Source: Mytilus edulis (taxonomy: Eukaryota). From it: 64,000 nt of DNA. Below the pieces are notes generated by a model that did not search any database, was not told the DNA's origin, and worked only from the letters and a program-made list of their open reading frames with translations. Position numbers and translations under genes: made by a program. The DNA is taken from positions 99,820,001 through 99,884,000 of the forward strand of contig NC_092346.1 of NCBI RefSeq assembly GCF_963676685.1, read 5' to 3'. This document shows positions 19,856 to 49,540 of the stretch, one piece after another. Within the stretch, counting starts at the first letter, position 1. Each line of letters begins with the position of its first letter.

Positions 19856-22485
19856 CTTACTTTTATATATATCTGCGAACATTCTTTGATACTATGTTAT
19901 TATGTATTTCCACTATTCTGAATTTTTTTGCATATGATATCGAACAGTTATTACACTGATGAGACTGGTACTGTTTAGTCGAAGTCTTTTAATTGTAAGA
20001 GTTATCTCCCAGAACACCTTTCATTGTGGTGAGATCTCTTCCGTAACCGTAAAAGAAAACGAAAAATTCATTTTACCAAATTGCTCTTTATTTCCTCAGG
20101 AATTTTGCTTCAATTTTGACTGAAGCAATACGAAGACTCCATATGAGAGTTATTTCCCCGTATGCATTTGAAATATGTGATATGCATTTAAAACTGATAA
20201 ACCATAAGTGATAGAGATCTAGGGTCTTTTGATTTAAAGTCCTTCGTCCAAACAATAGAAAACTAGGTCAAAGTCAAAGATCAAGGTCATATTCTAATTT
20301 TCTAATTTTTTACTTTTCCTTGTTCTTTGTCCTTTGATCTCATTTGTCACTGTTATAGATATATATAAAAGAACTAGTGCAAATTTTTTTAAAACCAGGT
20401 TCAATCAACCATTTTCTACATCAGATAACCGTACAGCTTTCAATAATGAGAAAAAAAAACGTACTGTATGGCTGACTATAAAAGGCCCCGACATGAAAAA
20501 TATGAAACGATTCAATTGAGGAAACTAACGGCCTAACACTTTACGAAACACAAATAAGAGATGAACCAACGGCAACCACTGTACTACTATTGGCTCCTGA
20601 CTTAGAACAGTCACATACCAAATGTAATGGGGTCTAACATGTTTGTCAGCGCACAACCCTCCCCTTTCCTTTGACAGTGGTGAAACAGTACAGCATAAGA
20701 ACTAACTATAAATATCAGTTGAAAAAGACATATCTCATCAGGTGGATACAAATGAAAATACATCTATATTAAAAATAAAAAGAGTAAATGTGGACGGGTA
20801 CTTAACCATCCCACAATAAAAGTACAATAAGAACAGGTCATATACCATCATCGTTCCCCCTAGGCCTATTAGTCTTTGTTAAATTTGTACTTTTTCAAAA
20901 GGAATTTGCAGAATTTATCTTCATTCTAAATAAGGAAATACTTTGCACGGGTAAATTTTTATCCTGTCCAGCACTAGACAAAAGTTCACATACCAATTCA
21001 TTGCATATAAGATAATAACCATCACTGGAAGTTAACCAATCAAATATTCACTAGTTCTTTTTCCACTTTGACACGTTTTAGTACATGTAACCATGTAACC
21101 TCAAATTTCCAAAATGTTCTATATAAACACAAAATGAAATAAGAATGATGCTTTACAATACCCAGTATGTATGATTATGAAGTGTAAAATATATTTTCTA
21201 CAACAGTCAAATTCAAGGTAATATTTTTATTTGACCCTTTTTTTATGCAACCAGATGTGACCTTCTATGATTTGGTGGTATACACATAAATAAGACTTTG
21301 TTTGTTGAATAACCTGAGTGATTTGTTTTTCATTTAAAATGCTGGTTATTTCACTGTAAAATTTTGTCATAATCTGTTCAATAGTTTAATGAAATCTAGT
21401 ATATTGTAAGACGACATCTTCAGAGATTCGGGCAAATGTGTTCGAATATGTTGTTACAATTTTTTTATTGATAGGTTTTATTTAGAATGAGTTATACTGC
21501 AACTAGTTGTGTTTATTTCCTAAATATAGTAACAACTATATTCTGCGCAATGTCAACTTCATCATGGATCATTTTCTCCACAATTATCAAGGGATGAAAA
21601 TAAATATAATATTTGTGTTTCGATTTAAAAAAAAAATAAAATCCATGTATCAAATTAAGTCGCAGTATAAAAACAATAGTATGTCAATTGGTAAAACGCC
21701 CTTCCCCAGTTTCTTAGCCTCATACAAAAGAGTTTATATTTTTCTAACATTGACCTAGTATTGTATATGAAGATATAGTACAACATAACTTAAGTAGGAG
21801 AAAAAGAACTTAAAGAAAGCAAAACACAAATAGAAAAGAAAAACAATAAAAAAAATATTTCTATGGACTACAGACACAAATGGTAAGTTAACCCAAGTGC
21901 TTCGGATGAATAATGAAGCAGTTCCATTATATGATAAAAACAAGGCAAAAATAAATCGGAAGGTTACCAAGATTGTTTGGATCAATATGCAGTTCCGATA
22001 TACTCGCCAATTATATTATATGATAAAGTGTATAAACATGGCAAAATCCTAATGCCGTATCACACTCGGCCGATATCATCTATTGGGTCTAAAGGCCCTC
22101 GGGCTGATATTGGTATCTCGGGATGGTACGGCATGTGATACGGACTTTGCCATGTATTATTATCTGTGTATCACATGTCAAGGGCAGATAAATACGACGT
22201 ATAGCAACCTCAGACGAAATTCAACATCAGCATTAATTCGACATCATCATCAGTTGAGTAGTTTAATAGCAAACACATTTAAGGCCTAATGAAAAAAGCG
22301 CTAGTTTTGTTATATTTTTTTATTACACATCTAATATTATCAGAAGAGTAATTGTAGTGTGTAGATGAACTTAACACCGGATTGTCCTATCAAATTTAAG
22401 ACAAAACAAACTTAGTTCATCTTAACCTTTTACATCGCAGACATCGATTCTGGTGCTCTCGTCCTTTTCTCTTACTTTAACTGTA

Positions 22486-22800
22486 CTGATGATTCTGGGA
22501 AGGTATGTTCCATCCATGTATAAAATCAACTGTCACACCACTGATACTTATAAAGTATGTTCGATTCATGTAAATTAACTGTCACGCCGCCGATACAGGG
22601 AAGGTATGTTTTATACATGTACAGTAACTGTCACACCGCTGATACTTATAAAGTATGTTCGATTCATGTAAATTAACTGTCACACCACTGATACTGGGAA
22701 GGTATGTTTCATACATGTACATCAACTGTCACACCGCTGATACTTATAAGGTATGTTCGATTCATGTAAATTAACTGTCACGCCGCCGATACAGGGACGG
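22486..22800. repeat. 49-bp minisatellite in the predicted 3' UTR of copy 2 (6 full units, alternating A/B types)
   Basis: Units ctgatacttataaagtatgttcgattcatgtaaattaactgtcac.. alternate with ..gggaaggtatgttt..; only 3 full units remain at 29860-30030. Confidence 0.85.
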
Positions 22801-23020
22801 TTTGTTAATTAACTGCTTATTGTATACAGATGATACGTCAATCGTTGGTATACCCGAATATGTTACCCTAGTAACGCAAGTATTTATGTTATTTGTACAT
22901 TAATTCTTTGTTTTCCTACGATTTATATCTATCCATCTCACATTCACTGTGATTATATCTTTCCATCTCACATTCACTGTGATTATGCATAGTTTTGAAT
23001 AAAAGAAGGAATATATCACG

Positions 23021-24668
23021 CTAAACAATGTAATATGGTGGTGAATGATGATTTCCACTTTTTACGGGAATGGTAGCATGTTGTTTTGCTGGTCTCACTT
23101 GAATTGTCTTGTGTTGTATCTCTACAATTGAAAGGAATCTTGTTTTGAAATGGAATCATTGTTGTTATATTCTAAATTATTCAATGTTATTTTTTTTTTA
23201 GTTGATGAAAGGAAAAATGCTTTACATAAAAAAAATGTTTTGTAATGACAACTTATATACAATTGAAAGCGATTGGTAATTATTAAAACAACAAGATGTT
23301 CTAAGTAAAAACATTTCATATTTCTTTGAAAAGATATATTCCCTTTTAATTTCTAGAGGACATTGTATTTCAATCTTCTGACGCATGAAAGCACTGTTAT
23401 TCAGTTTACAGTGATCGCACTGTGATACCTTAAACACTTCTTTCAGATAACAAAAGTGTGACAATTCATTTATAAAATCTCGTTATCATAATATTTTTAA
23501 AGGTTTTTATAACAGGATACTGATGGAAAAATTGCACATAGCAGTACATACAAAAAAAACGGCTGTGTAAAAATATCAATTTGGTTGTTTAGGAACTGTT
23601 CTTTCATCATTGTTTATCTGTGGTTTACCATTAGAATTAAACGTAGATATTAATATTTGCCGTGTTACATATCTCACTCGAATACAGACAGTTACAAAAA
23701 ATAAATATTAATATGTACGGAAGTCATTATAATAACTGGCTACGTTTTTTACTCGTATACAGCCAGTAAAGAAAATTTTTTACGAAATAAAGATAGTGTA
23801 ATAACTGCCTGTATGATTAATTGACGCAGATAATGTATTTTGTCACAAAAGATACAGAGTGTTGATTTTATCACATTTGTAGAAACTAGATTCAACGATA
23901 AGCAATTTACACCTACCTGTACATTTTGAATAAACAACACAAACAACGGCAAGTAAAATTCCAAGTCCTACAGAAGACAATATCACCAATACTATCATAC
24001 CACTGAAATACAAAAAAACATCATTCAATGCTTTACATACTTCAATTATCAAATATTGATAATATATGACCCAACAGTAACCTTCTGCCATTTTGAAGCT
24101 CTTGGTCGGTTCGCTGTCACCTCGACACATTCCCCATTTACATTATCAATTTCGAAAGAATGCGTGGGGTATACGCCAAAAAAGAAAAGAAAAAAAAGAA
24201 AACTAAACAAACAATCTTACTTATTGAACATAGAGACGAAATGCATGACGGTTCGATAAAGAAAATCAACATTTTTTGAGATTATTAATTACAATTTACT
24301 TACTTAATTGATAAACATAGAGATGTTCCAGTGCAATAAAGACCTTCTGGACAACACCATGTGCCACCTGTACATTGATGATAGGTTGCTGGACATTCCT
24401 CTTGTGGAGCTAAAGTAAAAAATATTGCCGATGTTAAAATCAGGAAAAACTATTGCTTTAAAATTAATCATTTTAGCTTACAAAAATGATGAGAAAAAAC
24501 TAAAATAAACTGAGTTTACCTTTGGTCCAAAGGACATCCGATAATTGTTATTGAAAAATAAAAAAAAATGAATTAAACATATTATATAGATTACTTACCT
24601 TGACAAGATACTTCTAATATTACATTGAAAAAAGTTAAAAGAAATACGTAAACATATGTAACATCCAT
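23021..24668 (-). CDS. Small single-pass membrane protein with six-cysteine ectodomain, copy 2 (120 aa)
   Basis: Exons 24668-24599, 24409-24304, 24002-23917, 23121-23021. MDVTYVYVFLLTFFNVILEVSCQAPQEECPATYHQCTGGTWCCPEGLYCTGTSLCLSINGMIVLVILSSVGLGILLAVVCVVYSKCTEIQHKTIQVRPAKQHATIPVKSGNHHSPPYYIV*. Confidence 0.9.
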
Positions 24669-25519
24669 GTCTCTTATTGAAGTTATTTTTCGTAAATGCT
24701 TACATATTATTATATTTGTTCTTTTATAGCAATTGCCGATGATTTTTTCAGATTCAGTAGAATTTATCAAATACACGGAAATAATATTGTTCTCAATCAG
24801 CCTTTTAAATTTCAGTTAATTCAAACAAAGCTATTTAAATTTTGCGTAATCAAGCATATATTGTAAATATCCGTATATATGAACTTGCTTCAAGGAGTGG
24901 AAAAAACAACGTAACCATTCAAGGGCATTCAATTAATTCCAGTAATAAAGATATAAATAGAAATATTTGGAAACCGTCAATCATTTTATTTCAGAGGATT
25001 TCATTCATTATATCCTGTAAAGAATACAACACCACGACCTGACGTGTTACTGGAACTACATCTCTACTAATGGGACTGCTCAGGATAATATTATGACGTG
25101 TTACTGGAACTACATCTCTACTAATGGGACCGCTCATGATAATATTATGAAATTTGCATGCTTCTTCAACAAAAGGAGCTATTTATATAATTATAAATAA
25201 GTTTTTTATTCTCCGAGATGTAGCAAAATGATTTTTAAATCGTCACCAGATCGGTTGCATTTGGAAACTTGTTGAAAGAAAACAAAGATACTTTTGTGGT
25301 TTTATATATGATCTTCCGCAGTTATGATACTTAACTCGAGATATTTAATTTAACCTAGATGGCATTTAATAACACTTGCTGAAATTATCAAAACACATAT
25401 TATTAATTATATTTAATCTTAATTTTAAGTTCTCTTATAGAGAAATGAGATTGACGGAGCCCCTGAGGTTAGCCTTGATTTGTATGAAGCTCAAATTAAT
25501 TAAGCTTTTGTGTATTAAT

Positions 25520-28184: not shown

Positions 28185-30235
28185 GTACTTTTTCAAAAGG
28201 AATTTGCAGAATTTATCTTCATTCTAAATAAGGAAATACTTTGCACGGGTACATTTTTATCCTGTCCAGCACTAGACAAAATTTCACATACCAATTCATT
28301 GCATATAAGATAATAACCATCACTGGAAGTTAACCAATCAAATATTCACTAGTTCTTTTTCCACTTTGACACGTTTTAGTAAATGTAACCATGTAACCTC
28401 AAATTTCCAAAATGTTGTATATAAACAAGTACATGTAATCATGGAACCTCAAATATCCAAAATGTTCTATATAAACACCAAATGAAATAAGAATGATGCT
28501 TTAAAATACCCAGTATGTATGATTATGACTAAATGTTTTTTTTTCTGCAATGAAGTGTAAAATAAATTTCCTACAACAGTCAAATTCAAGGTAATATTTT
28601 TATTTGACCCTTTTTTATATGCAACCAGATGTGACCTTCTATGATTTGGTGGTACTACACATAAATAAGACTTTGTTTGTTGAATAACCTGAGTGATTTG
28701 TTTGTCATTTAAAATGCTGGTTATTTCACTGTAAAATTTTGTCATAATCTGTTCAGTAGTTTAATAAAATCTAGTATATTGTAAGACGACATCATCAGAG
28801 ATTCGGGCAAATGTTTTCGAATAATTTGTTACTATTTTTTTTTATTGATAGGTTTTATTTAGAATGAGTTATACTGCAACTAGTTGTGTTTATTTCCTAA
28901 ATATAGTAACAACTATATTCTGCGCAATTTCAACTTCATCATGGATCATTTTCACCACAATTATCAAGGGATAAAAATAAATATAATATTTGTGTTTCGA
29001 TTTAAAAAAAAATTCCATGTATCAAATTAAGTTGCAGTATAAAAACAATAGTATGTCAATTGGTAAAACGCCCTTCCCCAGTTTCTCAGCCTCATACAAA
29101 AGAGTTTATATTTTTCTAACATTGACCTAGTATTGTATATGAAGATATAGTACAACATAACTAAAGTAGGAGAAAAAGAACTTAAAGAAAACAAAACACA
29201 ATTAGAAAAGAAATACAATAAACAAAATATTTCTATGGACTACAGACACAAATGGTAAATTAACCCAAGTGCTTCGGATGAATAATGAAGCAGTTCCATT
29301 ATATGATAAAAACACAAGGCAAAAATAAATCGGAAGATTACAAAGATTGTTTGGATCAATATGCAGTTCCGATATACTCGCCAATTATATTATATGATAA
29401 AGTGTATAAACATGGCAAAATCCTAATGCCGTATCACACTCGGCCGATATCATCTATTGGGTCTAAAGGCCCTCGGGCTGATATTGGTATCTCGGGATGG
29501 TACGGCATGTGATACGGACTTTGCCATGTATTATTATCTGTGTATCACATGTCAAGGGCAGATAAATACGACGTATAGCAACCTCAGACGAAATTCAACA
29601 TCAGCATTAATACGACATCATCATCAGTTGAGTAGTTTAATAGCAAACACATTTAAGGCCTAATGAAAAAAGCGCTAGTTTTGTTATATTTTTTTATTAC
29701 ACATCTAATATTATCAGAAGAGTAATTGTAGTGTGTAGATGAACTTAACACCGGATTGTCCTATCAAATTTAAGACAAAACAAATTTAGTTCATCTTAAC
29801 CTTTTACATCGCAGACATCGATTCTGGTGCTCTCGTCCTTTTCTCTTACTTTAACTGTACTGATGATTCTGGGAAGGTATGTTCCATCCATGTATAAAAT
29901 CAACTGTCACACCACTGATACTGGGAAGGTATGTTTCGTACATGTACATCAACTGTCACACCGCTGATACTTATAAAGTATGTTCGATTCATGTAAATTA
30001 ACTGTCACGCCGCCGATACAGGGACGGTATGTTAATTAACTGCTTATTTTATACAGCTGATACGTCAATCGTTGGTATACCCGAATATGTTACCCTAGTA
30101 ACGCAAGTATTCATGTTATTTGTTGTTTTCCTACGATTTATATCTATCCATCTCACATTCACTGTGAGTATATCTTTCCATCTCACATTCACTGTGATTA
30201 TGCATAGTTTTTAATAAAAGAAGGAATATATCACG

Positions 30236-31886
30236 CTAAACAATGTAATATGGTGGTGAATGATTATTTCCACTTTTTACGGGAATGGTAGCATGTTGTT
30301 TTGCTGGTCTCACTTGAATTGTCTTGTGTTGTATCTCTACAATTGAAAGAAATCTTGTTTTTGAAATAGAATCATTGTTGTTATATTCTAAATTATTCAA
30401 TGTTATTTTTTTTTAGTTGATGAAAGGAAACATGTATTACATAAAAATATATGTTTTGTAATGACAACTTATATACTATTGAAAGCGATTGGTAATTATT
30501 AAAACAACAAGATGTTCTAAGTAAAAACATTTCATATTTCTTTGAAAAGATATATCCCCTTTTAATTTCTAGAGGACATTGTATTTCAATCTTCTGACGC
30601 ATGAAAGCACTGTTATTCAGTTTACAGTGATCGCACTGTGATACCTTAAACACTTCTTTCAGATAACAAAAGTGTGACAATTCATTTATAAAATCTCGTT
30701 ATCATAATATTTTTAAAGGTTTTTATAACAGGATACTGATGGAGAAATTGCACATAGCAGTACATACAAAAAAAAACGGCTGTGTAAAAATATTAATTTA
30801 GTTGTTTAGGAACTGTTCTTTCATCATTGTTTATCTGCCGTTTACCATTAGAATTAAACGTAAATATTAATATTGGCCGTGTTACATATCTCACTCGAAT
30901 ACAGACAGTAACAAAAAATAAATATTGATATGTAAGGAAGTCATTATAATAACTGGCTACGTTTTTTACTCGTATACAGCCAGTAAAGAAAATTTTTTAC
31001 GAAATAAAGATAGTGTAATAACTGCCTGTATGATTAATTGACGCAGATAATGTATTTTGTCACAAAAGATACAGAGTGTTGATTTTATCACATTTGTAGA
31101 AACTAGATTCAACGATAAGCAATTTACACCTACCTGTACATTTTGAATAAACAACACAAACAACGGCAAGTAAAATTCCAAGTCCTACAGAAGACAATAT
31201 CACCAATACTATCATACCACTGAAATACAAAAAAACATCATTCAATGCTTTACATACTTCAATTATCAAATATTGATAATATATGACCCAACAGTAACCT
31301 TCTGCCATTTTGAAGCTCTTGGTCGGTTCGCTGTCACCTCGACACATTCCCCATTTACATTATCAATTTTGAAAGAATGCGTGGGGTATACGCCAAAAAA
31401 GAAAAGAAAAAAAAAGAAAACTAAACAAACAATCTTACTTATTGAACATAGAGACGAAATGCATGACGGTTCGATAAAGAAAATCAACATTTTTTGAGAT
31501 TATTAATTACAATTTACTTACTTAATTGATAAACATAGAGATGTTCCAGTGCAATAAAGACCTTCTGGACAACACCATGTGCCACCTGTACATTGATGAT
31601 AGGTTGCTGGACATTCCTCTTGTGGAGCTAAAGTAAAAAATATTGCCGATGTTAAAATCAGGAAAAACTATTGCTTTAAAATTAATCATTTTAGCTTACA
31701 AAAATGATGAGAAAAAACTAAAAAAAACTGAGTTTACCTTTGGTCCAAAGGACATCCGATAATTGTTATTGAAAAATAAAAAAAAATGAATTAAACATAT
31801 TATATAGATTACGTACCTTGACAAGATACTTCTAATATTACATTGAAAAAAGTTAAAAGAAATACGTAAACATATGTAACATCCAT
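30236..31886 (-). CDS. Small single-pass membrane protein with six-cysteine ectodomain, copy 3 (120 aa)
   Basis: Exons 31886-31817, 31627-31522, 31219-31134, 30336-30236. Same protein as copy 2 except GNNHSPPYYIV (His to Asn). Confidence 0.88.
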
Positions 31887-34168
31887 GTCTCTTATTGAAG
31901 TTTTTTTTCGTAAATGCTTACATATTATTATATTTGTTCTTTTATAGCAATTGCCGATGATTTTTTTCAGATTCAGTAGAATTTATCAAATACACGGAAA
32001 TAATATTGTTCTCAATCAGCCTTTTAAATTTCAGTTAATTCAAACAAAGCTATTTAAATTTTGCGTAATCAAGCATATATTGTAAATATCCGTATATATG
32101 AACTTGCTTCAAGGAGTGGAAAAAACAACGTAACCATTCAAGGGCATTCAATTAATTCCAGTAATAAAGATATAAATAGAAATATTTGGAAACCGTCAAT
32201 CATTTTATTTCAGAGGATTTCATTCATTATGTCCTGTAAAGAATACAACACCACGACATGACGTGTTACTGGAACTACATCTCTACTAATGGGACTGCTC
32301 AGGATAATATTATGACGTGTTACTGGAACTACATCTCTACTAATGGGACTGCTCAGGATAATATTATGAACTTTGCATGCTTCTTCAACAAAAGGAGCTA
32401 TTTATATAATTATAAATAAGTTTTTTATTCTCCGAGATGCAGCAAAATGATTTTTAAATCGTCACCAGATCGGTTGCATTTGGAAACTTGTTTAAAGAAA
32501 ACAAAGATACTTTTTGTGGTTTTATATATGATCTTCCGCAGTTATGATACTTAACTCGAGATATTTAATTTAACCTAGATGGCATTTAATAACACTTGCT
32601 GAAATTATCAAAACACATATTATTAATTATATTTAATCGGAGCCCCTGAGGTTAGCCTTGGTTTGTATGAAGCTCAAATTAATTAAGCTTTTGTGTATTA
32701 ATTTTACTTTCTTTTCTTTCCGTCATTTTTTTTTTTTTTGGTTTGAATCTGGTTGTTTTTCGACTCTTTACTTTGATGGTTTTCTGGACTGTTTTTATTT
32801 TATCTTTTTCTTTTTTTTTGTTTTCCAACTTATTGTTTTGCTGGACTGTTTGTTTTTATTTTATCTTTTTCCTTATTTTTGTGTTCAAACTTATTGTTTT
32901 GATGGACTATTTTTTTTCTTTTTGGTCATGATTTTCTTTCAATTTCTTTTTTTTATTCAAGGTTTATTTTGTATTTCTTTTCTATTTGGTCAGGGTATTG
33001 TTTGTTATTCTTTCCATTGTTTTTACTTTTGGTCAGGGTATTGTTTGTTTAAAATATTCATTGTGTCCCCCTTTTGGTCAGGGTTTTGTTAATTTTTCTA
33101 TCCATTGTTTTAACTTTTGGCCGAGGTTTTGTTTGGTTTTTCCATTCATTGTTTTCTTTTTGATCATGTTTTTTTCCATTGATTTCTTTTGGTCAGAGTT
33201 TGAATTTTTGCTATCCTTTGTTTTCCTTCTGGTCAGTGTATTGTATATTTATCCATTGCACTTTTTCGTTGTTTTATAATGACCACCCCCTTGAGTCATA
33301 TCGCTAAGTCATATGTCTTGTGTTGTATTTTATGGACAGTTTCAATGCCTATTTTATTTTTACCTTTGTACCAATGATGTTTGTTTCTGTTGTACATTTA
33401 TTTCTGTTGTACATTTATATTTTATATCCCCCTTTTAACAATGTGACGTTTGATTCTTGATTCTTGTTTATTTTTACTGCTATTTTAATACAATCCGATA
33501 AGACAGAACGACATTTGATAGAAATTCAAACTGTTTAGTTGCTATTTAAAATTTAAAAGCGAAATTTTCATTATCATTGTCCATGATACTTGCGCACACT
33601 CTTCTTCAGAACTCTTGACTAAGATAATCGTATCATAGAATTGTTTCGATTCAATTAGAATGATACAAAATATTCAAATAATTGGGAATTTTATAGTTTT
33701 TTGTTGTTTGATATCTTTTTCCTAGTAAAATGTCATTCTGACATGGTCTTATCACAATCTTAGCTCAAAGTAGCTTGTAAATCGTTATTCATAAAAAGAC
33801 CAATTGATTATTTAATAACCGGAAATTTCAACCTCACACAATCTAGTAAGACACTATAAACAATTCTTAAAAATTAAATTAAACGATGTTTATTCTTAAA
33901 CATGTCATCAATACTGTCCGATATGTATCTCTCTAGAACAAAACATATTTAACTGTAGATTAATCCCATTTGAAATTATGTGCCAACTGTGTATTTCCTG
34001 ATACAGCGATTTAATATTTCCATATATGTTAAATAAAGGTCTTCATAAAAATCAATATAATATGGTTGGTTAGGCATTCCTATATATATATTATTCCATA
34101 TATGCCAAGTTTAAATTGGACTTATTCCAACATTCAAAAAGCCACACATGACGCAGGTTTTTGACTGC

Positions 34169-35803: not shown

Positions 35804-36218
35804 ATAAACTCATCATAGATACCAGGACTAAAATTTTACACTTACGCCAGACGCACGTTTCGTCTACAAAAGACTCATCAGTGACGCTCGGATCAAAAAA
35901 TGTTTAAAAGGCCAAATCAAGTACGGAGTAAGAGAGCATTGAGGACCAAACATTTCTAAATGTTTTGCCAAATACAGCTAAGGTAATCTATTCATGAAGT
36001 AGAAAAGCCTTAGTATTTCAAAATTCAAAGTTTTGTTTACAGTTAATTTATTATGAACATATCAATGATAACTCAAGTCAGCACAGAAGTGCTGACTACT
36101 GTGCTGGTGATACTCTCAGGGAAATAAATCTCCACCAGCAGTGGCATCGACACAGTAATTGTAAATAAATCATCTTGGATACCAAGACTGAAATTTTACA
36201 CTTTCGCCAGACGCGCGT
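35804..36218 (-). mobile_element. Non-LTR retrozyme-like element: 360-nt monomer plus partial tandem repeat
   Basis: Direct repeat acca(g/a)gact(a/g)aaattttacactt..cgccagacgc at 35821 and 36181 (period 360), overlapping hammerhead cleavage sites. Confidence 0.8.
35844..35887 (-). ncRNA. Type I hammerhead ribozyme, intact core
   Basis: Minus strand reads gcgtca-CTGATGA-gtc(ttttgta)gac-GAAAC-gtgc-GTC^tggcgt; predicted cleavage between 35850 and 35849. Confidence 0.88.
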
Positions 36219-38440: not shown

Positions 38441-41400
38441 CTAATCCATGTCCGTTTTTCTTCTTACCAGCATGATCCCATCTCTAACAGGAAGTAGGAC
38501 CTAAAAAAATACAATATATGAAATAACTTATCTTAAAATAGTTAAGTATAGCAGCACATGGTGTCGATTGGTGTCTTTGCAGACTGCTTGAAACATTATT
38601 TACAAAAAAGAAGATGTGGTATGATAGCCAATGAGACAACTCTCCACAAGAGACCAAATGACACAGAAGTTAACAACTACAGGTCACCGTACGGTTTTCA
38701 ACAATGATCAAAATCCATACCGCATAGTCAGCTGAAAAAGAAAATTGAAATTAAAAAAAGTTTGTTATTTCATAAAAGGAGTAGGTCCGGTAAGGGCTGA
38801 TTTTGGCCTCAAATTTCAGGTTCATCTGATGAAAGATTTTGAACACTTTTTAAACACTTAAGTGTCTATTTTATTTGAATCAATTAGTTTATGTGAAAGA
38901 TTTTAACTGCCTTAGTCATAAAAAACACATCAATTCAAGCTGAAATATGAAAAATCTACCAAATATGCCGAAAAATGTCACTTTTCAGCTGGTTTTTGTC
39001 TGAAATGAAAGTGGCCGCATCCGTGTTCATCCTCAACCTTTATATATGCTATGTATTATCGTAAAATACAACTTACATTTCAATATTAAGGATGAACACG
39101 AATGCGGCCACTTTCGTTTTACACGAAAACCGTCTAAAATTTAACTAAAATGCTAGAACTGTGAAGTTTTCAGTAATTTAGCATGACTTAATGGTGCTAG
39201 TACCCGATATATATGTGCATTGTTTTGTCAACAATATCCCATATTTATGTAGCAGAAGCATTTTACTGTGCAATAAATAACTAAAAATTTACATTTTAAC
39301 AATTTGGTAAAACTGCTATATTTTGGGGCCAAAAAGGGGTCTTACTGGACCTACTCCTTTTAATTTAAGACTAACTATTTGTTTACTGATCCTTCAGGAA
39401 GATATAAAATAATTCAGCTTGATATGAGAGTATCCAAGTAGTACGAAGAAGGATGTAAAAATACACCCTGGTCCATATTCAAAGTAATATATATTGAATT
39501 CAATGATCACATATATATAAGTCACTTACATGGTAGATATCCTCTCTTGTCGCTATTGTCTCATTCACATCCTTTATTCCATCGTCGTCGGGCGTATCTG
39601 TCATATACGATCTACCACCGGATAACGCATTATCTAGGGCAATAGTACCTCCTGGTGCCAATAAATTGTTCAGGGCTATCTTCATGAAATATATTATTAA
39701 AGTATTTACCTTTATTTTATGTAATCACTATTCACCTTAAGATTAAAAGAGCTAGGGCCAATTTTCACTGAAATGTTTAAACGATCATTTCTAAAATTCA
39801 TAATAATATGTTTGTTTGTAATCTAACATGTGGTCCACTTATAAGTAGCCACAAATAACTTTTCAGTTCTCTTTGTAGCTTACTATGCGTTATGAGTTTT
39901 GTTCATTGTTGAAGGCCGTAGAAATGGTCCCAATGATAACCATACCAAATCCTCGTATTTTTATATAGAGACAGATTTTTGAATATTTGTATTGTCAATA
40001 AAAAAAACCAAAAATTAGACCATTCTTAACCAAAACTGAAATTTGTTGGGATATATATATATATTCATAAGTACGTCTGAGTCAGTGACAACCCTACAAC
40101 AGATGTATCCATCGGATCGCCATCAATGATGGTGATACATGGCTGTGTACATAATGTATATACAACTCGTCTAAACATCAACCCAACAATGTTAGATCTG
40201 TAAATTTGCTTTCGCAAATTTTTGGTTCTTCCCTCGCCGGGATTCGAACCCATGCTACTGTGATATCGTGACACCAAATCGCCTGCACTGCAGCCGTCCC
40301 GCTAGACCACACGACCACCTGGGCTCTCAAATAAAAGAGCTTTCGGTGGGCATGAGTAAAACACATGCCCACCGAAAGCTCTTTTATTTGAGAGCCCAGG
40401 TGGTCGTGTGGTCTAGCGGGACGGCTGCAGTGCAGGCGATTTGGTGTCACGATATCACAGTAGCATGGGTTCGAATCCCGGCGAGGGAAGAACCAAAAAT
40501 TTGCGAAAGCAAATTTACAGATCTAACATTGTTGGGTTGATGTTTAGACGAGTTGTATATACATTATGTACACAGCCATGTATCACCATCATTGATGGCG
40601 ATCCGATGGATACATCTGTTGTAGGGTTGTCACTGACTCAGACGTACTTATGAATATAATTATTTTCTGTGACTGTATCTTACATTAATTTGTAGGATCC
40701 TTTACTATAGATAATTTAGCTGATCTGTAACAATAACATCTTCATGCCTTATATATCATGTACTGTAGTACGCCGCTAGATTAAAACTGACGTGGAAAGG
40801 TAACACATGCCCACCGAAAGCTCTTTTATTTGAGAGCCCAGGTGGTCGTGTGGTCTAGCGGGACGGCTGCAGTGCAGGCGATTTGGTGTCACGATATCAC
40901 AGTAGCATGGGTTCGAATCCCGGCGAGGGAAGAACCAAAAATTTGCGAAAGCAAATTTACAGATCTAACATTGTTGGGTTGATGTTTAGACGAGTTGTAT
41001 ATATATATATATATATATATATGTCTAGCGGGACGGCTGCAGTGCAGGCGATTTGGTGTCACGATATCACAGTAGCATGGGTTCGAATCCCGGCGAGGGA
41101 AGAACCAAAAATTTGCGAAAGCAAATTTACAGATCTAACATTGTTGGGTTGATGTTTAGACGAGTTGTAAATACATTATGTACACAGCCATGTATCACCA
41201 TCATTGATGGCGATCCGATGGATACATCTGTTGTAGCGTTGTAACTGACTCAGACGTACTTATAAATATAATTATTTTCTGTGACTGTATATTACATTAA
41301 TTTGTAGGATCCTTTACTATAGATAATTTAGCTGATCTGTAACAATAACATCTTCATGCCTTATATATCATGTACTGTAGTACGCCGCTAGATTAAAACT

Positions 41401-44400
41401 GACGAGGAAAGGTAACACACGGCCAGCGAAAGCTCTTTTTTTGAGAGCCCAGGTGTGTGGTCTAGCGGGACGGCTGCAGTGCAGGCGATTTGGTGTCACG
41501 ATATCACAGTAGCATGGGTTCGCATCCCGGCGAGGGAAGAACCAAAAATTTGCGAAAGCAAATTTACAGATCTAACATTGTTGGGTTGATGTTTAGACGA
41601 GTTGTATATACATTGCTCTTTTGATTAAACTTCATTAATTTCGATTTGAGACGTCCTTCTATGCAAAATTCTACAAATACGTTTAAAATTTGCAGTGCTT
41701 AAATGTTTATATCTTATTCAAAATGTTAAAATTGTTGATAATTTTTGTGCGAATACTGTGAAGTATTATATATTTTATTATTTTAAGCTTAAATCATTTT
41801 AAGGTTTTGACAATGTAAGTGAAAAAATATAAGAAGAAATCGGTCCCACCTCAAATATAAATAACGAAAAAATAAATAATCATTAAGGAAAGCATGAGTA
41901 CAAAATTGTTTTCGTACATATATAACTATAAACAAATAAAATTACCAATGAAACATATTGGATGTAAATCTAATATTGTAAGTTTAATATGCTCTGCTAG
42001 AAAAGTCTAATTATTTAAGTTATCACAACATAATAAGGGTAATTTACATTACTGAAAAGCTGTACTATAAAGTACAAAGGTATCTCTATTTAAACCAATC
42101 ACTGTAAATTAAAGTTGGATTATTTGAACAAAATAGCATTAAAGTCTATTTGTTTCATAACACACTGTTGCCAGTATAATAGAATTTTATGCGACTGTGC
42201 GTCATACAAGTGAGAGGTTAAGCTAGTTTTAAAACAAGGTTAAATCCACCATTTTCTAAATAAGGAATTATTACAGTTGTTTTCCATTCGTTAAGATGTG
42301 TTTGAGCTTTTGATTTTGCCATTAATTTGATAAGGGACTTTCCGTTTTGAATTTTCCTCAGAGTTCTGTATGTTGTGATCTTACTTTTTTCTAATGAATT
42401 ATCCATTTAAAGTTGTTCAGTAATTTTGATATTTAGTTTTTAAGTTGATATTTATAGATGCAATCTTACCGAATTTCATCTCAGTAAACTTACATGAAAG
42501 TATTCAGATTTTCCAGGTCTATCAGCATCTATGAAAATGAAATCAAACTGTTCTCCTCTTTTTGAAAGGTCTTTAATTGTGTCTAGTGCTGAGCCTAAAA
42601 AAAGCTAGGTTTGAGAAAATGTTTTATTTGTATGTTTTTGTTTAACGTTAATACCCAAGAGATAAGAGCGATCTTAAACCATTAACCTTTGCTTTTATGA
42701 TTTTTATAATTAATGAAAATCGACATTATTGAGCGCAAATAGGGAATACGAAACAGTTTCAGGGGATGTAATGACGTTGTACCGCAAAGTTTCATTTTTG
42801 GAGACGTCAAACTGCGATATATCGAGTACAATTAACATTTTATGGAGTGAAATTAATCATCAGCCTGAAATCGAGTACTTGTGCACTCTTTTTGAAAATG
42901 ACATTTGACTTGATTTTGTTTGAAGATTGTTTGATCCAATTTTTGTGAGAAAAAAATGTTTATTCTTTGCCGAGATTCGAACTACTGATATTGGGATATT
43001 GGGACAACTCAATGGCATGAGCTCGAATGCCGGCGAGCGACGAACAAACTTTGCTTCCGCAAATTTTCTGATCTAACATTTTTGTGCTGATATTTAGAGT
43101 GATTGTGTACTTTTAATATATGTGTTGTCAGTCGTGTATCAACTTTACTGGTTATCCAATGAATGATCTGTCTTATAGTTGTCACTGGCTTAGACGTAAA
43201 TATTATATAATTATAAGATATTATTTATTACCTATAAGAATTTCTACTTTTTTACCATGAGGTGATCGGTCCGTATAGGTCCTTGCAAGTTTGGCTAGAT
43301 ATGGATCAAATTCACATGTAACAACCGTTCCATCATTTGGCATAACTTCTGCCATTCCTAAAGCACTACATCCCGTAAATAAACCTACTTCTAATACCTT
43401 CTTTGCTTTAGAAGTGTTCACTAAAAACTTCAATACATAACCTACAAAACATACAGTTAAAGTATAGTATAGTATTAGCCATATCATAAAAACGCCTACA
43501 AAACATGAAGTACAGTTAAAGTATAGTAGGAGCCATATTATAAAAACGCCTACAAAACATCAAGTACAGTTAAAGTATAGTATTAGCCATATCATAAAAA
43601 CACCTACAAAACATGAAGTACAGTTAAAGTATAGTATTAGCCATATCATAAAAACGACTACAAAACATCAAGTACAGTTAAAGTATAGTATTAGCCATAT
43701 CATAAAAACGACTACAAAACATGAAGTACAGTTAAAGTATAGTATAGTATTAGCCATATCATAAAAACGCCTACAAAACATGAAGTACAGTTAAAGTATA
43801 GTATTAGCCATATTATAAAAACGCCTACAAAACATGAAGTACAGTTAAAGTATAGTATTAGCCATATCATAAAAACGCCTACAAAACATGAAGTACAGTT
43901 AAAGTATAGTATTAGCCATATCATAAAAACGCCTACTAAACATGAAGTACAGTTAAAGTATAGTATTAGCCATATCATAAAAACGACTACAAAACATCAA
44001 GTACAGTTAAAGTATAGTATTAGCCATATCATAAAAACGACTACAAAACATCAAGTACAGTTAAAGTATAGTATTAGCCATATCATAAAAACGACTACAA
44101 AACATGAAGTACAGTTAAAGTATAGTATAGTATTAGCCATATCATAAAAACGCCTACAAAACATGAAGTACAGTTAAAGTATAGTATTAGCCATATTATA
44201 AAAACGCCTACAAAACATGAAGTACAGTTAAAGTATAGTATGAGCCATATTATAAAAACGCCTACAAAACATCAAGTACAGTTAAAGTATAGTATAGTAT
44301 TAGCCATATCATAAAAACGCCTACAAAACATGAAGTACAGTTAAAGTATAGTATGAGCCATATTATAAAAACGCCTACAAAACATGAAGTACAGTTAAAG

Positions 44401-47369
44401 TATAGTATGAGCCATATCATAAAAACGACTACAAAACATCAAGTACAGTTAAAGTATAGTATTAGCCATATCATAAAAACGCCTACAAAACATGAAGTAC
44501 AGTTAAAGTATAGTATTAGCCATATTATAAAAACGCCTACAAAACATGAAGTACAGTTAAAGTATAGTATGAGCCATATTATAAAAACGCCTACAAAACA
44601 TGAAGTACAGTTAAAGTATAGTATAGTATTAGCCATATCATAAAAACGCCTACAAAACATGAAGTACAGTTAAAGTATAGTATGAGCCATATTATAAAAA
44701 CGCCTACAAAACATGAAGTACAGTTAAAGTATAGTATAGTATTAGCCATATCATAAAAACGCCTACAAAACATGAAGTACAGTTAAAGTATAGTATGAGC
44801 CATATTATAAAAACGCCTACAAAACATCAAGTACAGTTAAAGTATAGTAGTAGCCATATCATAAAAACGCCTACAAAACATGAAGTACAGTTAAAGTATA
44901 GTATTAGCCATATTATAAAAACGCCTACAAAACATGAAGTACAGTTAAAGTATAGTATGAGCCATATTATAAAAACGCCTACAAAACATGAAGTACAGTT
45001 AAAGTATAGTATAGTATTAGCCATATCATAAAAACGCCTACAAAACATGAAGTACAGTTAAAGTATAGTATGAGCCATATTATAAAAACGCCTACAAAAC
45101 ATGAAGTACAGTTAAAGTATAGTATAGTATTAGCCATATCATAAAAACGCCTACAAAACATGAAGTACAGTTAAAGTATAGTATGAGCCATATTATAAAA
45201 ACGCCTACAAAACATCAAGTACAGTTAAAGTATAGTATGAGCCATATTATAAAAACGCCTACAAAACATCAAGTACAGTTAAAGTATAGTATAGTATTAG
45301 CCATATCATAAAAACGCCTACAAAACATGAAGTACAGTTAAAGTATAGTATGAGCCATATCATAAAAACGCATCAAATCATTCATACAATTAATCTAACA
45401 CACGATGAACCCCCGATGATAAGTATATTGTCAAAAATTACTTGCACTTTACAATGACTTTTTTCTGTTAGTTTATACAATTTCAAATTCATCTTAACTT
45501 TGTTTAAACTTTATTTTTGCTTACAAAGTTGTTTGTTTAGGCGATTATTTTTCATGAACAAAACTATAGTTCTAGCATTGTTAATACTACACTGAGAAAC
45601 GATCTACAAAACTATAGTTCTAGCATTGTTAATACCCCACTGAGAAACTATAGTTCTAGCATTGTTAATACCCACTGAGAAACTATAGTTCTAGCATTGT
45701 TAATACAACAATGAGAAACGATCTACATTTGCTATGGTATAAACACCGAGGGATTGAATATTCTGAAATTGACTACTTTAAGACCCTTAATGCAATTATA
45801 TTTTCCATTTAGACCAGTACTGATTTCGTTGACTGAGTGGTAATTGTTTGAAATGTAAACTCTTATTTATGTTCACATGCAGCACAATTAAACAAAAAGA
45901 CAAACGAATGGATAACTGTTCTTTTCCTGATTTGGTACATACATCTTTTTATGTAGAAAATTGTGGATTAAATAGCTAGTTACACCTCTCCCTTGTAGGA
46001 CATATAAGTTATAATCATATGTGTAGTATGTCTTATTCTACATGATCCAATACCCATCAACTATACTAATTGGTCGTTTCTATAGACTATTACCGTACAT
46101 ATCTATAATACAAGTATCGGCTGTGAAATCTTTAGTTGTATCAAGTAAATTTTAAACCAGTCATATTTTGTTAATTTTTTGTCAACAAAAGCTAAGCAAG
46201 ACATTTCACACTGACGTATTAATGGCAAAGCGAAGGGTTTATATATAAAAGTAAATGTGTGTACATGTAATTATTTCTTAACCTTCAAGATTTCCAGACA
46301 TCATTACTGGATTGATGTCCCATTTGGTTTGTTCTTCATTAAAAAGTTGCTTCCATGGATGCTCAAGCGTGTCTTTGATAAGAGCTGCCATAGCTTCACT
46401 AGGTCCTGATGTTTTCTGATCACAGTAGTCATCTCTTTTCTACATGATAATATAAAACCATTACTGAAATTAAAGGATTATTTCTGACACTTCTAATTAG
46501 CACTACGATATCGGGTTTGAGAAGAGACGTTATTTATGAATTTGCGTTATTTATTTGTGTGTTTGGTACCAGATTAATCATTCAAGCAGTTCAAATTTCA
46601 AACGGATGGCTTCAATTTGTTTTTATGCGGTGTTGTTACAATGCTGGCCCATATTGGGGAATGATGAGCGAGCACAAACATCTTTAACCCCGCCTCATTC
46701 GTTATGTGCCTGTTCAGATTCATCAATTTTTAATCAAGTGATGGTCGTTGTTTGATGTCTGTCGTAATAGGTTTATTGTTGCAGCATAAATTAGGAAAAT
46801 GTTTTTCTTTTTTGAATGATTTCACATGTTGCCCATCGAGAATCTTGCATAGCTCTCTACACCGTATTAGTTTTGCACATTAATGGCCGTATATGGTGAA
46901 ATGCAATTGTTCACACCCTTGTCCTTTGGTCTTTATTGACATGACAGTAGATTCATATCATCTTATTGTTTCTATATATATAAAATCAAAGTATCAATTT
47001 AATTTTAATTTTCATGTCATCATTGTATGCTTTATTTTAAAACGAAAAAAAATCGGGCCAAATATAAGTATATAATGTTGCGACATAATGTGTTACATTC
47101 ATAATGTTTACCCAAGCTTTCAAATTTAACTTTCATTCAGCAGTCACATTAAGGTCCGTGGCTTAAATGTTTTTTTTCTGAAAACAAAAATATTGTCTTG
47201 AAGAAAATTATTCTGATTCAAAACTTAAAAGTAAGCTCGTTACCTTCATCAGTTCACCAACCCTTTCTAAACCAGAAATAACAGTCTCTGGAACATCCAT
47301 TGATTTCGCTAATGTAATGACTTCTCTTAGTTTTCTCACAGCTGGGTCGTGGTGGTGTGAACCTGACAT
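38441..47369 (-). CDS. Class I (cation-dependent) SAM O-methyltransferase, OMT-1, MysB/CCoAOMT-like, 267 aa
   Basis: Exons 47369-47244, 46439-46283, 43441-43232, 42594-42494, 39679-39530, 38500-38441 (804 nt). Motifs MMSGNLEG, VLEVGLFTGCSALGMAE, CEFDPY, SPHGKK, FDFIFIDADR, LLAPGGTIALDN, LPVRDGIMLVRR. Internal exon sizes match OMT-2. Confidence 0.92.
38775..39360. mobile_element. MITE (Kolobok-like termini) in the last intron of OMT-1
   Basis: TIR aaaggagtaggtccggtaag / cttactggacctactccttt; internal hairpin aaagtggccgcat / atgcggccacttt. Confidence 0.88.
40051..41614. mobile_element. tRNA-derived (Pol III A/B box) 442-bp repeat unit in inverted plus tandem array
   Basis: A box TGGTCGTGTGG at 40401-40411, B box GGTTCGAATCC at 40468-40478. 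Period 442 (40361 to 40803). 40065-40354 is the reverse complement of 40364-40653. (TA)n at 40051-40064 and 40998-41022. Confidence 0.85.
42955..43205. mobile_element. Old diverged copy of the tRNA-headed element, also with an inverted 5' arm
   Basis: ttctttgccgagattcgaac (reversed head), then gcatgagctcgaatgccggcgag..gcaaatttt..gatctaacatt..gtcactggcttagacgta. Confidence 0.65.
43441..45370. repeat. 54/59-bp satellite, about 35 units, abutting the acceptor of OMT-1 coding exon 3
   Basis: Unit cctacaaaacatgaagtacagttaaagtatagtattagccatatcataaaaacg; the 59-bp variant has an extra atagt. Confidence 0.97.
45561..45728. repeat. Short tandem repeat, 4 units of ~36-48 bp
   Basis: aaactatagttctagcattgttaatac..actgag occurs four times. 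Confidence 0.85.
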
Positions 47370-47934
47370 TGTTCTTTAAAATTACTAAAATTCAGTAACT
47401 ATATATAAAAAAAAAAAAAAGATTTATCAGGACGACAACGGTTTTCGTAGCTTTAAAAAAATCAACGTAAACGCTAATTGACACATCTGATAATATTGTT
47501 ATTATGAAATAAAACAGCAAGTTGTTTTTGCTTTTAATCGTATAAGCCCTTTTTTGAAATATTTAACTCGTGATATATGTTTTGAAGAAAATTGTGCTTT
47601 AAGCACTCGAATGTTACGTTCGGCAAATCACTACCGGTCAAATCATTAACATATTCAGTTGAAAGGCTCCGCTTGCTACAAAGATTACGACTTAGTACAT
47701 TAAAGATTGGCAGATCTTTGCAAGATAGTTTCAGATGTATGAGAATGCACGTGATTGCAGTTAAGGAAATGATTGTACAATTATTCTGAAAGATATGACA
47801 GTTGTTTTCCATTCGTCCAACGTTTAATTTTGTCAGTTTTTATGAACCCCCTTTCCATGCTTTCTGATTTACGAGTTTTATATTTTTTATACTTTCTTAT
47901 GTACATACATAAATGATTAAAACCGTCAAAATCA

Positions 47935-49540
47935 TTAGTATTCCTATTAGTATTCCTATAAGTATTGCTATTAGTATTTCTATTAGTATTTCTATTAGTA
48001 TTCTTATTAGTATTCCTATTAGTATTCCTATTAGTATTCCTATTAATATTCCTATTAGTATTCCTATTAGTATTGCTATTAGTATTGCTATTAGTATTCC
48101 TTTTAGTATACCTATTAGTATTCCTATTAGTATTGCTATTAGTATTCCTATAAGTATTCCTATTTGTATTAGTATTCCTATTAGTATTCCTATTAATATT
48201 CCTATTAGTATTCTTATTAGTATTCCTATTAGTATATTGCTATTAGTATTGCTATTTTTATTCCTATTAGTATTACTATTAGTATTCCTATAAGCATTGC
48301 TATTAGTATTGCTATTAGTATTGCTATTAGTATTGCTATTATTATTGCTATTAGTATTCCAATTAGTATTCCTATTAGTATTCCTATAAGTATTGCTATT
48401 AGTATTGCTATTAGTATTGCTATTAGTATTCCTATTAGTATTGCTAATAGTATTGCTATTAGTATTGCTTTTAGTATTGCTATTAGTATTCCTATTAGTA
48501 TTCCTATTAGTATTCCTATTCCTATTAGTATTACTATTAGTATTCCTATAAGTATTGCTATTAGTATTGCTATTAGTATTGCTATTAGTATTGCTATAAG
48601 TATTCCCATAAGTATACCTATAAGTATTCCTATTAGTATTACCATTAGTATTCCTATTCCTATTCCTATTATTATTGCTATTAGTATTGCTATTAGCATT
48701 GCTATTAGTATTGCTATTAGTATTGCTATTAATATTGCTATTAGTATTGCTATTAGTATTGCTATAAGTATTCCTATTAGTATTCCTATTATTATTCCTA
48801 TTAGTATTGATATTAGTATTGCTATTAGTATTCCTATTAGTATTCCTATTATTATTCCTATTAGTATTGATATTAGTATTGCTATTAGTATTGCTATTAG
48901 TATTCCTATTATTATTCCTATTAGTATTGATATTAGTATTGCTATTAGTATTCCCATTAGTATTCCTATTAATATTCCTATTAGTATTGCTATTAGTATT
49001 CCCATTAGTATGCCTATTAGTATTCCTATAAGTATTGCTATTAGTATTGCTATTAGTATTGCTATTAGTATTGCTATTAGTATTGCTATTAATATTGCTA
49101 TTAGTATTGCTATTAGTATTGCTATTAGTATTCCTATTATTATTCCTATTAGTATTTATATTAGTATTGCTATTAGAATTCCTATTAGTATTGCTATTAG
49201 TATTCCTATTAGTATTCCTATTAATATTCCTATTCCTATTAGTATTCCTATTAGTATTGCTATTAGTATTGCTATTAGTATTGCTATAAGTATTCCCATT
49301 AGTATTCCTATAAGTATTCCTATTAGTATTGCTATTAGTATTCCCATTAGTATTCCTATTAATATTCCTATTAGTATTGCTATTAGTATTCCCATTAGTA
49401 TGCCTATTAGTATTCCTATAAGTATTGCTATTAGTATTGTTATTAGTATTGCTATTAGTATTGCTATTAGTATTGCTATTAATATTGCTATTAGTATTGC
49501 TATTAGTATTGCTATTAGTATTCCTATTATTATTCCTATA
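47935..49540. repeat. 12-bp low-complexity satellite (ATTAGTATTSCT)n, 1.6 kb
   Basis: Alternating attagtattcct and attagtattgct; source of the Ile/Leu-rich pseudo-ORFs. Confidence 0.97.

Follow-up and report, generated by a model that had tools for sequence, protein, structure and literature searches.

A tRNA-Leu-headed mobile element of Mytilus edulis, probably derived from a Penelope-like terminal repeat and predicted to be copied from a circular RNA

Related elements and layout of the locus

Retrozymes that lack long terminal repeats (LTRs), or non-LTR retrozymes, which include families of Mytilus galloprovincialis, are short, non-coding tandem units with a structured RNA and no LTR features, for which a circular template and a Penelope partner have been proposed (available text of PMC7229834; Penelope-like origin, 10.64898/2026.07.22.740005). 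A similar 442-bp unit was found at positions 40051 to 41614 of a 64,000-nucleotide stretch of Mytilus edulis DNA (assembly GCF_963676685.1, contig NC_092346.1, forward-strand positions 99,820,001 to 99,884,000), referred to here as the window. The results suggest, with a probability of about 0.5, that the unit is a non-coding mobile element with a transfer RNA-Leu (tRNA-Leu) head and thousands of copies in (TA)n, probably originating from a Penelope-like terminal repeat, and that its unit-length transcript by RNA polymerase III (Pol III) would be closed to a circle and copied by the reverse transcriptase (RT) of a partner.

The unit (441-442 bp, GC content 0.41) falls within the range of non-LTR retrozymes, which are tandem, non-coding, about 150-450 bp long and under 50% GC. 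As far as the available text of PMC7229834 describes them, the mussel non-LTR retrozymes are set apart by their size of 350-390 bp, compared with 441-476 bp for the element, which in addition has an internal tRNA-Leu Pol III promoter and a T-run, lacks a strict type I hammerhead, and has as putative partner a TA-targeting element with a C-terminal endonuclease. In the portions of PMC6765202 available, the Sm-alpha and Sj-alpha repeats of Schistosoma likewise combine a Pol III promoter with a hammerhead in tandem, and single truncated copies cannot propagate; their ribozyme is active and frees monomers, whereas that of the element is minimal, mutated or lost, and the predicted terminator of the element abuts its start. 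Endonuclease-positive Penelope-like elements of the Neptune/Nematis type and non-autonomous Chlamys elements such as MRC1, as covered by the available part of PMC8557442, share with the element 5' truncation, partial tandems, an inverted 5' copy, an alternative 3' extension, a (TA)n target and multicopy head-to-tail non-autonomous derivatives, although the element has no open reading frame (ORF), carries a Pol III tRNA head and has an extension of about 98 nt rather than 30-40 nt. A tRNA-derived Pol III promoter is also present in the short non-autonomous TRIMp3 elements Helenus and Cassandra (PMC10886601, in part) and in bivalve tRNA short interspersed elements (SINEs; PMC11481361, in part), among which tandem arrays occur. 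In contrast to TRIMp3 as described there, the element has no paired LTRs, no fixed 5' end (189 5' ends are scattered), no 4-bp duplication, and a longest purine run of 10 nt; in contrast to the SINEs, it has neither poly(A) nor a tail resembling that of a long interspersed element (LINE), and its insertion end lies mid-transcript. The element thus works like a non-LTR retrozyme without the defining hammerhead and has a SINE head but fails SINE collinearity, and it can best be classed among the non-autonomous Penelope derivatives, as a new type of variant. Among the titles and openly available articles surveyed, none described a tRNA-headed Penelope-dependent family in mussels; the family may already have been named as a SINE in Repbase, Dfam or subscription journals.

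The locus was initially read from the sequence alone as one tandem and head-to-head array. Repeat coordinates and quoted motifs were all at the expected places, and both the copies and the inverted arm are present, the arms (40055-40357 and 40361-40663) being 303 nt long and 99% complementary; however, the locus is composed of two independent insertions with one common (TA)12 target rather than a single array. Unit copies start at 40411 (u1 in the numbering u1-442), 40853, 41023 and 41460, with spacings of 442, 170 and 437. The order is (TA)n, inverted u393 to u248, forward u392 to u154 of the next unit, (TA)12, and the second insertion from u1 to u155 of the next unit. The young insertion spans 40060-41006 and the older-subfamily insertion 41023-41614; their alignment has 14 differing positions, among which is a 4-nt deletion that lies in the second A box of the older one. 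The features are as follows.

40051-40059, no strand: (TA)n target, left flank of the young insertion, from the sequence.
40060-40357, minus: inverted 5' arm, u393 to u248, ending at the second 3' site of the family; 1 mismatch in 298 nt against the forward arm (fold-back).
40360-41006, plus: young-subfamily forward arm of 647 nt (u392-442, one full unit and u1-154), ending at the main 3' site.
40390-40827, plus: predicted Pol III transcription unit, the sole complete one at the locus; putative start at about 40390-40393, T-run end at 40824-40831, ends predicted to pair in a 6-bp stem.
40394-40479, plus: tRNA-Leu-derived head by alignment with tRNA-Leu(CAG); A box 40401-40411, B box 40468-40479.
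40550-40561, plus: putative main priming site motif GAGTTGTATATA, recurring at 40992, 41162 and 41599; 71 of 104 sampled segments end there.
40651-40658, plus: second end site, TA-like, at u241-248; u241-259 holds the ends of 16 of the 104 sampled segments.
40783-40828, plus: young-subfamily minimal-hammerhead register with A9U; core CUGACGU at 40787-40793, predicted cut after 40823.
40824-40831, plus: T-run junction loop with array-specific sequence; predicted Pol III terminator and place of RNA-end joining.
40998-41022, no strand: (TA)12 target common to both insertions.
41023-41614, plus: older-subfamily insertion, 5'-truncated at u1, with T7 junction and 4-nt A-box deletion; probably dead.
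41395-41439, plus: complete minimal hammerhead register AAAA / CUGACGA / G-C / GAAA / GC / UC / UUUU; predicted cut after 41435; 0 of 20,000 shuffles.
43015-43214, plus: decayed copy of the older sister family C, 72% to the unit.

The predicted fold of the unit was more stable than those of all 100 shuffles (z -5.04). When folded as a circle the unit was branched, with 11 hairpin loops and 67% of positions paired, and was rod-like solely where the two ends meet; the rod-like RNA proposed in the sequence-only reading is not supported. Of the helices quoted earlier, cacacggcca/tggtcgtgtg combines two subfamilies, cacacggcca occurring only at 41416. No Rfam family was found in the window at the gathering score, and only hairpin-type chance matches were found in 40000-41700 at E<=10. 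An ARAGORN scan found no tRNA gene.

Insertion pattern, tRNA-Leu head and junction loop

A 19-mer near the 3' end gave 7,268 exact matches and the junction motif 4,730, with no control matches for either. Dispersed over the chromosomes are near-identical arrays, the longest with 9-10 units, and the 442-bp unit is a member of a young family. Internal sub-unit expansions, of 35-bp repeats of u301-335 and of 246-bp repeats, were seen at L097/L098 and L099/L100 as secondary satellite formation.

Insertion ends were surveyed on contig C1 of the genome (G000) using position-ordered matches to a motif at u122-140 (of the first 100 matches listed, the last six were left out), a choice that does not force the observed 3' ends. 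The 63 merged regions contained 124 segments, 104 of which were kept at 85% identity and 40 nt; an internal 35-bp tandem was also dropped. The 3' ends were located at u145-165 in 71 segments, at u241-259 in 16 and elsewhere in 17. Corresponding numbers were 127, 27 and 25 over all loci of the genome (n = 179) and 23, 5 and 1 for sister family B (n = 29). TA repeats were present at 67 of the 71 main 3' ends, consistent with the suspected (TA)n preference, and poly(A) at none; the copies in this sample lack the collinearity and the poly(A) or LINE-like tail of SINEs, and target duplications are unreadable within (TA)n. The 189 tabulated 5' ends were scattered, with mild enrichment at u419-429 (12 of 189, p 0.003, six of them at u425) and none at u412-416, the predicted hammerhead cut. 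The boundary between T-run and head was crossed by 50 of the 57 copies that reached it, though the commonest junction was T7 (16 of 36 sampled). Since the 3' end is fixed in (TA)n, the 5' ends are scattered and the head boundary is crossed, the results indicate that the insertions are circular permutations of the unit. Primed copies were longer than one unit in 22 of 87 cases and one unit or shorter in 65. Inverted 5' arms ended at the second site about 98 nt on, and of 18 head-to-head pairs, which include one duplicate locus, 12 had one arm at each end site. The combination of 5' truncation, partial tandems, inverted 5' arms and (TA)n ends agrees with the Penelope-type mobilisation put forward earlier, which is very probable.

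Three sister families were identified. Family B (475-479 bp, 97.5% pairwise identity) is young, resides in the same genome and forms the same kind of arrays, family C is old, and family D (about 462 bp) was obtained from metagenome loci. The metagenome scan yielded 73 stretches in which, among the matches listed, related copies of family D or A were mixed with chance matches, and a scan of viral contigs gave 7 matches, none related. Families B, C and D keep the end-closing stem with compensatory changes; the T-run is kept in B and D and is mostly two or three T in C.

The head was identical to genomic tRNA-Leu(CAG) at 57 of 71 aligned positions (z 8.3), identifying it by sequence as tRNA-Leu-derived. 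The A and B boxes reported earlier are present, although the A box begins at 40401 (u433), upstream of the unit start then chosen, and tRNA position 1 lies at about u426. Directly upstream of the head is the T-run, which reads T4-A-Tn in the young subfamily and is enclosed by the stem. In an alignment of 22 sequences from families A, B, C and D, 93.9% of the cells of the end-closing stem were paired and 3 of its 6 pairs changed on both sides across families; the middle helix was misregistered between families (67%). A transcript extending from just before the head to the T-run would be one unit long with paired ends, the predicted pair probabilities of the terminal stem being 0.84-1.0. Thus covariation is present, in addition to the crossing of the head boundary and the lack of poly(A) at 3' ends, features by which the element was to be told from monomeric SINEs.

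The junction loop showed 8 majority states in 16 young arrays, compared with 1, 3, 2, 1 and 1 at five control sites, and deviated from its own array in just 2 of 61 units. Arrays L163 and L176 had two private variants in common and different junctions, while L175 and L176 had the junction in common on different backgrounds. Because diversity between arrays is high, deviation within arrays is rare and junction states recur on different haplotypes, the loop was probably written anew one time for each template and thereafter copied with fidelity. Such an array-specific loop is what a single joining of the RNA ends, followed by copying round the circle, would be expected to give.

Four libraries (X6, X7 and X8, recorded as RNA from one study, and X13, presumed RNA) contained one cyclic 471-nt contig each (441+30), a 441-nt variant of the young subfamily. 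Another check detected the 442 back-joint in 3 of 4 runs; X9 has it and X4 does not. The cyclic contigs fit a circle or a multimer from young arrays and prove neither. The other repeats of the window were represented in X6-X8 by many divergent, flanked contigs. RNA depth in these runs does not show expression of the element above that of neighbouring repeats, and the contigs reveal neither strand nor ends. Overall, the insertion pattern, cyclic contigs and array-specific junctions support the circular or end-joined template that had been suggested. Libraries X6-X9 are fish-gut RNA libraries, in which mussel repeats in general are also present; a cyclic contig there would fit nuclease-resistant RNA from eaten mussel.

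Hammerhead register and candidate Penelope-like partner

A strict scan for type I hammerheads found none in families A, B, D or one C copy, while detecting hammerheads in control loci, and a relaxed descriptor of the hepatitis delta virus type found none on both strands of a dimer. Compared with the unit by eye, the consensus forms of the twister, hairpin, pistol and hatchet ribozymes do not fit, a comparison that serves as a lead only and not as a test. A relaxed hammerhead scan revealed a minimal register composed of AAAA, core, G-C, GAAA, palindromic GC, UC and then the T-run as stem I. The earlier view that no canonical ribozyme could be built from CUGACGAG..CGAAA holds for the strict form; a hammerhead of the minimal Penelope type can nonetheless be built from it, and a new class of ribozyme need not be invoked. 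The old unit has every core position, with a palindromic AGCU and a 4-bp stem I, which none of 20,000 shuffles did. The minimal hammerheads of Penelope-like elements, as presented in the available text of PMC4209133, similarly lack helix III and have a palindromic 15.2-16.2, G10.1-C11.1 and a short helix I; in the element, helix II at the core is 1-2 bp rather than the 7-8 bp of the Schistosoma motifs, helix I is all A-U, and a stabler fold overlaps the register.

Of the 61 motif copies sampled, 7 had the register in fully canonical form, as did 1 of 85 from young-array loci, in which A9U with the rest intact accounted for 74 of 85. Substitutions at A9 lower hammerhead activity. Family B arrays lacked the GAAA core in 13 of 13. 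A9 belongs to the consensus core (PMC3088659, in part). Families C and D break the minimal register, and the end-closing fold is predicted to exceed the hammerhead helices in stability by about 29-39 kcal/mol. Across the family series, C and old A have the core, young A has A9U and B has none. Vestigiality is the best reading of this series, and the hammerhead of old A may be active. Judged from these sequences, at least one lineage can complete its life cycle without the ribozyme, since family B is young, forms the same arrays and has no core. Selection for stem I extension was not shown, position 1.6 being paired in 4 of 16 arrays. A second register in family C (GUC then UAG) was rejected: its first stem-I pair varies between C-G and A-U, pairing in stem I reaches only 59%, and the tRNA-Leu head begins with this GUC at its 5' end. 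A strict type I hammerhead is located at 35881 of the window on the minus strand, in an abundant repeat unrelated to the element (also at L343 and L339).

A search for GIY-YIG endonucleases, in which 150 of 858 candidates were scored, revealed several young families encoding an RT and a C-terminal endonuclease and ending in (TA)n, each with two alternative 3' ends. One of them, a 911-aa element with RT and C-terminal GIY-YIG domains, is intact in the same genome (L341), with two ORF copies 99.9% identical. Its two 3' ends, both AGAC..TATA, account for 4 and 7 of 11 ends and are separated by 89 nt, and all three of its inverted pairs have one arm at each end, as in the 442-bp element; the microsatellite target and the alternative 3' extension are thus common to both. 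The 911-aa ORF carries the CX2CX4CX2C linker that the available part of PMC8557442 gives as typical of Neptune/Nematis elements. In alignments to the pseudo-LTR (pLTR) of the 911-aa element, the best of 8 targets, family B scored z 7.9 and family D z 4.2. Both end sites fall within the aligned block, and a second, weaker block is found immediately before the 911-aa hammerhead, where the element has CUGACGA. These results suggest that the 911-aa family or a close relative is likely the partner. A 959-aa family has the two-site layout in common with the element more weakly. The 784- and 791-aa TA-targeting families were rejected, having no significant shared sequence (highest z 3.0) and an end spacing of 37-40 nt. 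Naiad was also rejected, the two flanks of the L344 Naiad giving z values no higher than 1.0; the published Naiad_Mgal and Naiad_Mcor 3' regions, within the available part of PMC8557442, gave no match by eye. The ORF of the L344 Naiad starts, by eye, like the translated 5' text of Naiad_Mcor in PMC8557442, which marks the host as a Mytilus-type mussel. Co-location with Penelope copies was uninformative because all use (TA)n.

Variant hammerhead cores were observed in the 3' untranslated regions of young Penelope families (L341, L345, L336), namely CAAGAAGA in the 911-aa family, CCGAUGA in the 959-aa family and UUGAAAA in the 784-aa family, and CUGAGGA in an older 911-aa family fragment (L351). 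The ribozyme of the candidate partner may have decayed too. A U3-A8 swap of the UUGAAAA type is noted in the available text of PMC4209133. A 755-aa Penelope family (L346, L304, L314, L358) does not end in (TA)n and has a second frame of C2H2-like look directly after the endonuclease stop.

Proposed replication route, alternatives and implications

In the proposed route, Pol III would start about 4 nt before the tRNA-like head and stop in the T-run one unit later, so that the RNA would be one unit long. The short stem, predicted and supported by covariation, would bring the two RNA ends together, and a host ligase would join the ragged 3' tail to the 5' end, fixing a molecule-specific junction. 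An endonuclease of Neptune/Nematis type would then nick (TA)n, as suggested by the shared ends, and the nicked DNA would prime on UAUAUA at u148-153, the RT running backwards round the circle and stopping at random. The second strand would often be anchored at a second UA-rich site about 98 nt away, giving the inverted 5' arms whose pattern is described above. Only insertions of about 610 nt or more would rebuild a full transcription unit. A fuller version, tentative and short of an even chance, is that of a retrozyme lineage replacing its ribozyme: a Penelope terminal repeat would have captured a tRNA-Leu gene, Pol III start and stop would set the unit, the triphosphate-ended transcript would be closed to a covalent ring by a host route other than back-splicing or ribozyme and RtcB, and the 911-aa RT would then roll round.

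Several observations weigh against the circular route. Closure would depend on a host ligase that accepts 5'-triphosphate and 3'-OH ends. Cyclic contigs can also come from multimer read-through or from DNA, and neighbouring repeats in X6-X8 were covered equally deep or deeper. The covariation of the stem is drawn from 4-5 lineages. The enrichment of 5' ends at u419-429 is weak because another 11-nt window holds 17 (at u236), and it is also below u222-255 in a hazard scan. Young arrays keep every hammerhead position except A9 (in 74 of 85), and in 69 of 85 their stem I is longer, at 5-7 bp. Among the long arrays, L162 is a mosaic, and DNA-level expansion therefore also occurs. As to the partner, the true endonuclease and RT may be a relative of the 911-aa element, since family A was not significant against its pLTR (z 1.5; one C copy z 0.9), the four-family profile gave a weak match (E 0.039, though 0 of 200 shuffles scored as high) and part of the candidates was scored.

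Among the alternatives, a linear RNA with ends held by the terminal stem and copied by the same Penelope partner, the RT jumping from the 5' end to the 3' tail in each round, is improbable. It needs no ligase of the kind invoked above, the terminal stem is predicted to be firmly paired, stops show a modest excess at u418-436 (hazard ratio 2.9, 4 of 9 on second arrival), and a molecule-specific 3' tail would likewise give array-specific junctions. However, the jumps would have to add almost no untemplated bases, given the 2 deviating units of 61, and be about 88% efficient to account for the 50 of 57 crossings, and junction-spanning cyclic contigs are present in four RNA libraries.

Equally unlikely is a classical retrozyme resembling Sm-alpha, in which read-through multimers would be cut by a dimeric minimal hammerhead at C413 and the monomer ligated by RtcB. 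The complete core of the old unit, absent from every shuffle, has the architecture given in the available text of PMC4209133, the T4-A junction of young copies weakens the terminator and lengthens stem I, and RtcB circularises hammerhead-cut retrozyme monomers (PMC7229834, in part). Set against this are the few fully canonical copies, the lack of a core in the near-identical copies of family B, the broken register in C and D, and the lower predicted stability of the hammerhead helices; furthermore, a precise cut at 413 would leave the variation at u419-421 unexplained, and no 5' end lies at u412-416. Least probable is an ordinary tRNA SINE, terminal-repeat retrotransposon in miniature (TRIM) or satellite with arrays made by DNA-level duplication or the copying of multimeric read-through RNA, which the many copies of one unit or less, the mosaic L162 and the existence of tandem and palindromic SINEs in bivalves (PMC11481361, in part) would favour, and which is already largely refuted as the main route, for the short copies are circular permutations through the head and not head-to-tail monomers, poly(A) is lacking, 5' ends are scattered, dispersed young arrays are uniform for private variants, and control homopolymers are without junction hypervariability.

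Other repeats were noted in the window and genome. The window contains a local duplication of about 4.3 kb with 94-98% identity (21080-25418 and 28428-32638), a probable non-autonomous DNA transposon whose terminal inverted repeats are 59 nt long and whose internal inverted repeat measures 75 nt (38755-39380), a 54-bp satellite of 35 copies with 59-bp variants (43441-45371) and a 12-bp minisatellite of 135 copies (47934-49539). A tandem 1.28-kb repeat with tRNA-Leu(AAG) and over 50 motif matches is located at 53.80-53.91 Mb of contig C2 in G000 (L380), together with an opposite-strand gene called tRNA-SeC by ARAGORN. The sequence of this gene instead resembles an elongator tRNA-Met(CAT) with an insert of about 18 nt after the anticodon, possibly an intron.

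Rolling reverse transcription of a circle has been proposed for Penelope tandems and retrozymes, yet without a named enzyme-template pair. Here a 441-nt template, a priming site, a second-strand site and a near-identical, intact candidate RT are present in one genome, and the mechanism can therefore be reconstituted. According to the family series, the hammerhead would no longer be needed when the ends are set by Pol III, which bears on the frequent weakness of Penelope hammerheads, and ribozyme-based searches would miss a class of circular RNAs. If the replacement of the ribozyme in a retrozyme lineage is true, the element, with both partners intact and open to testing, would add a third way in which animals produce genome-encoded circular RNA, and it would be a SINE-like family that a Penelope enzyme drives.

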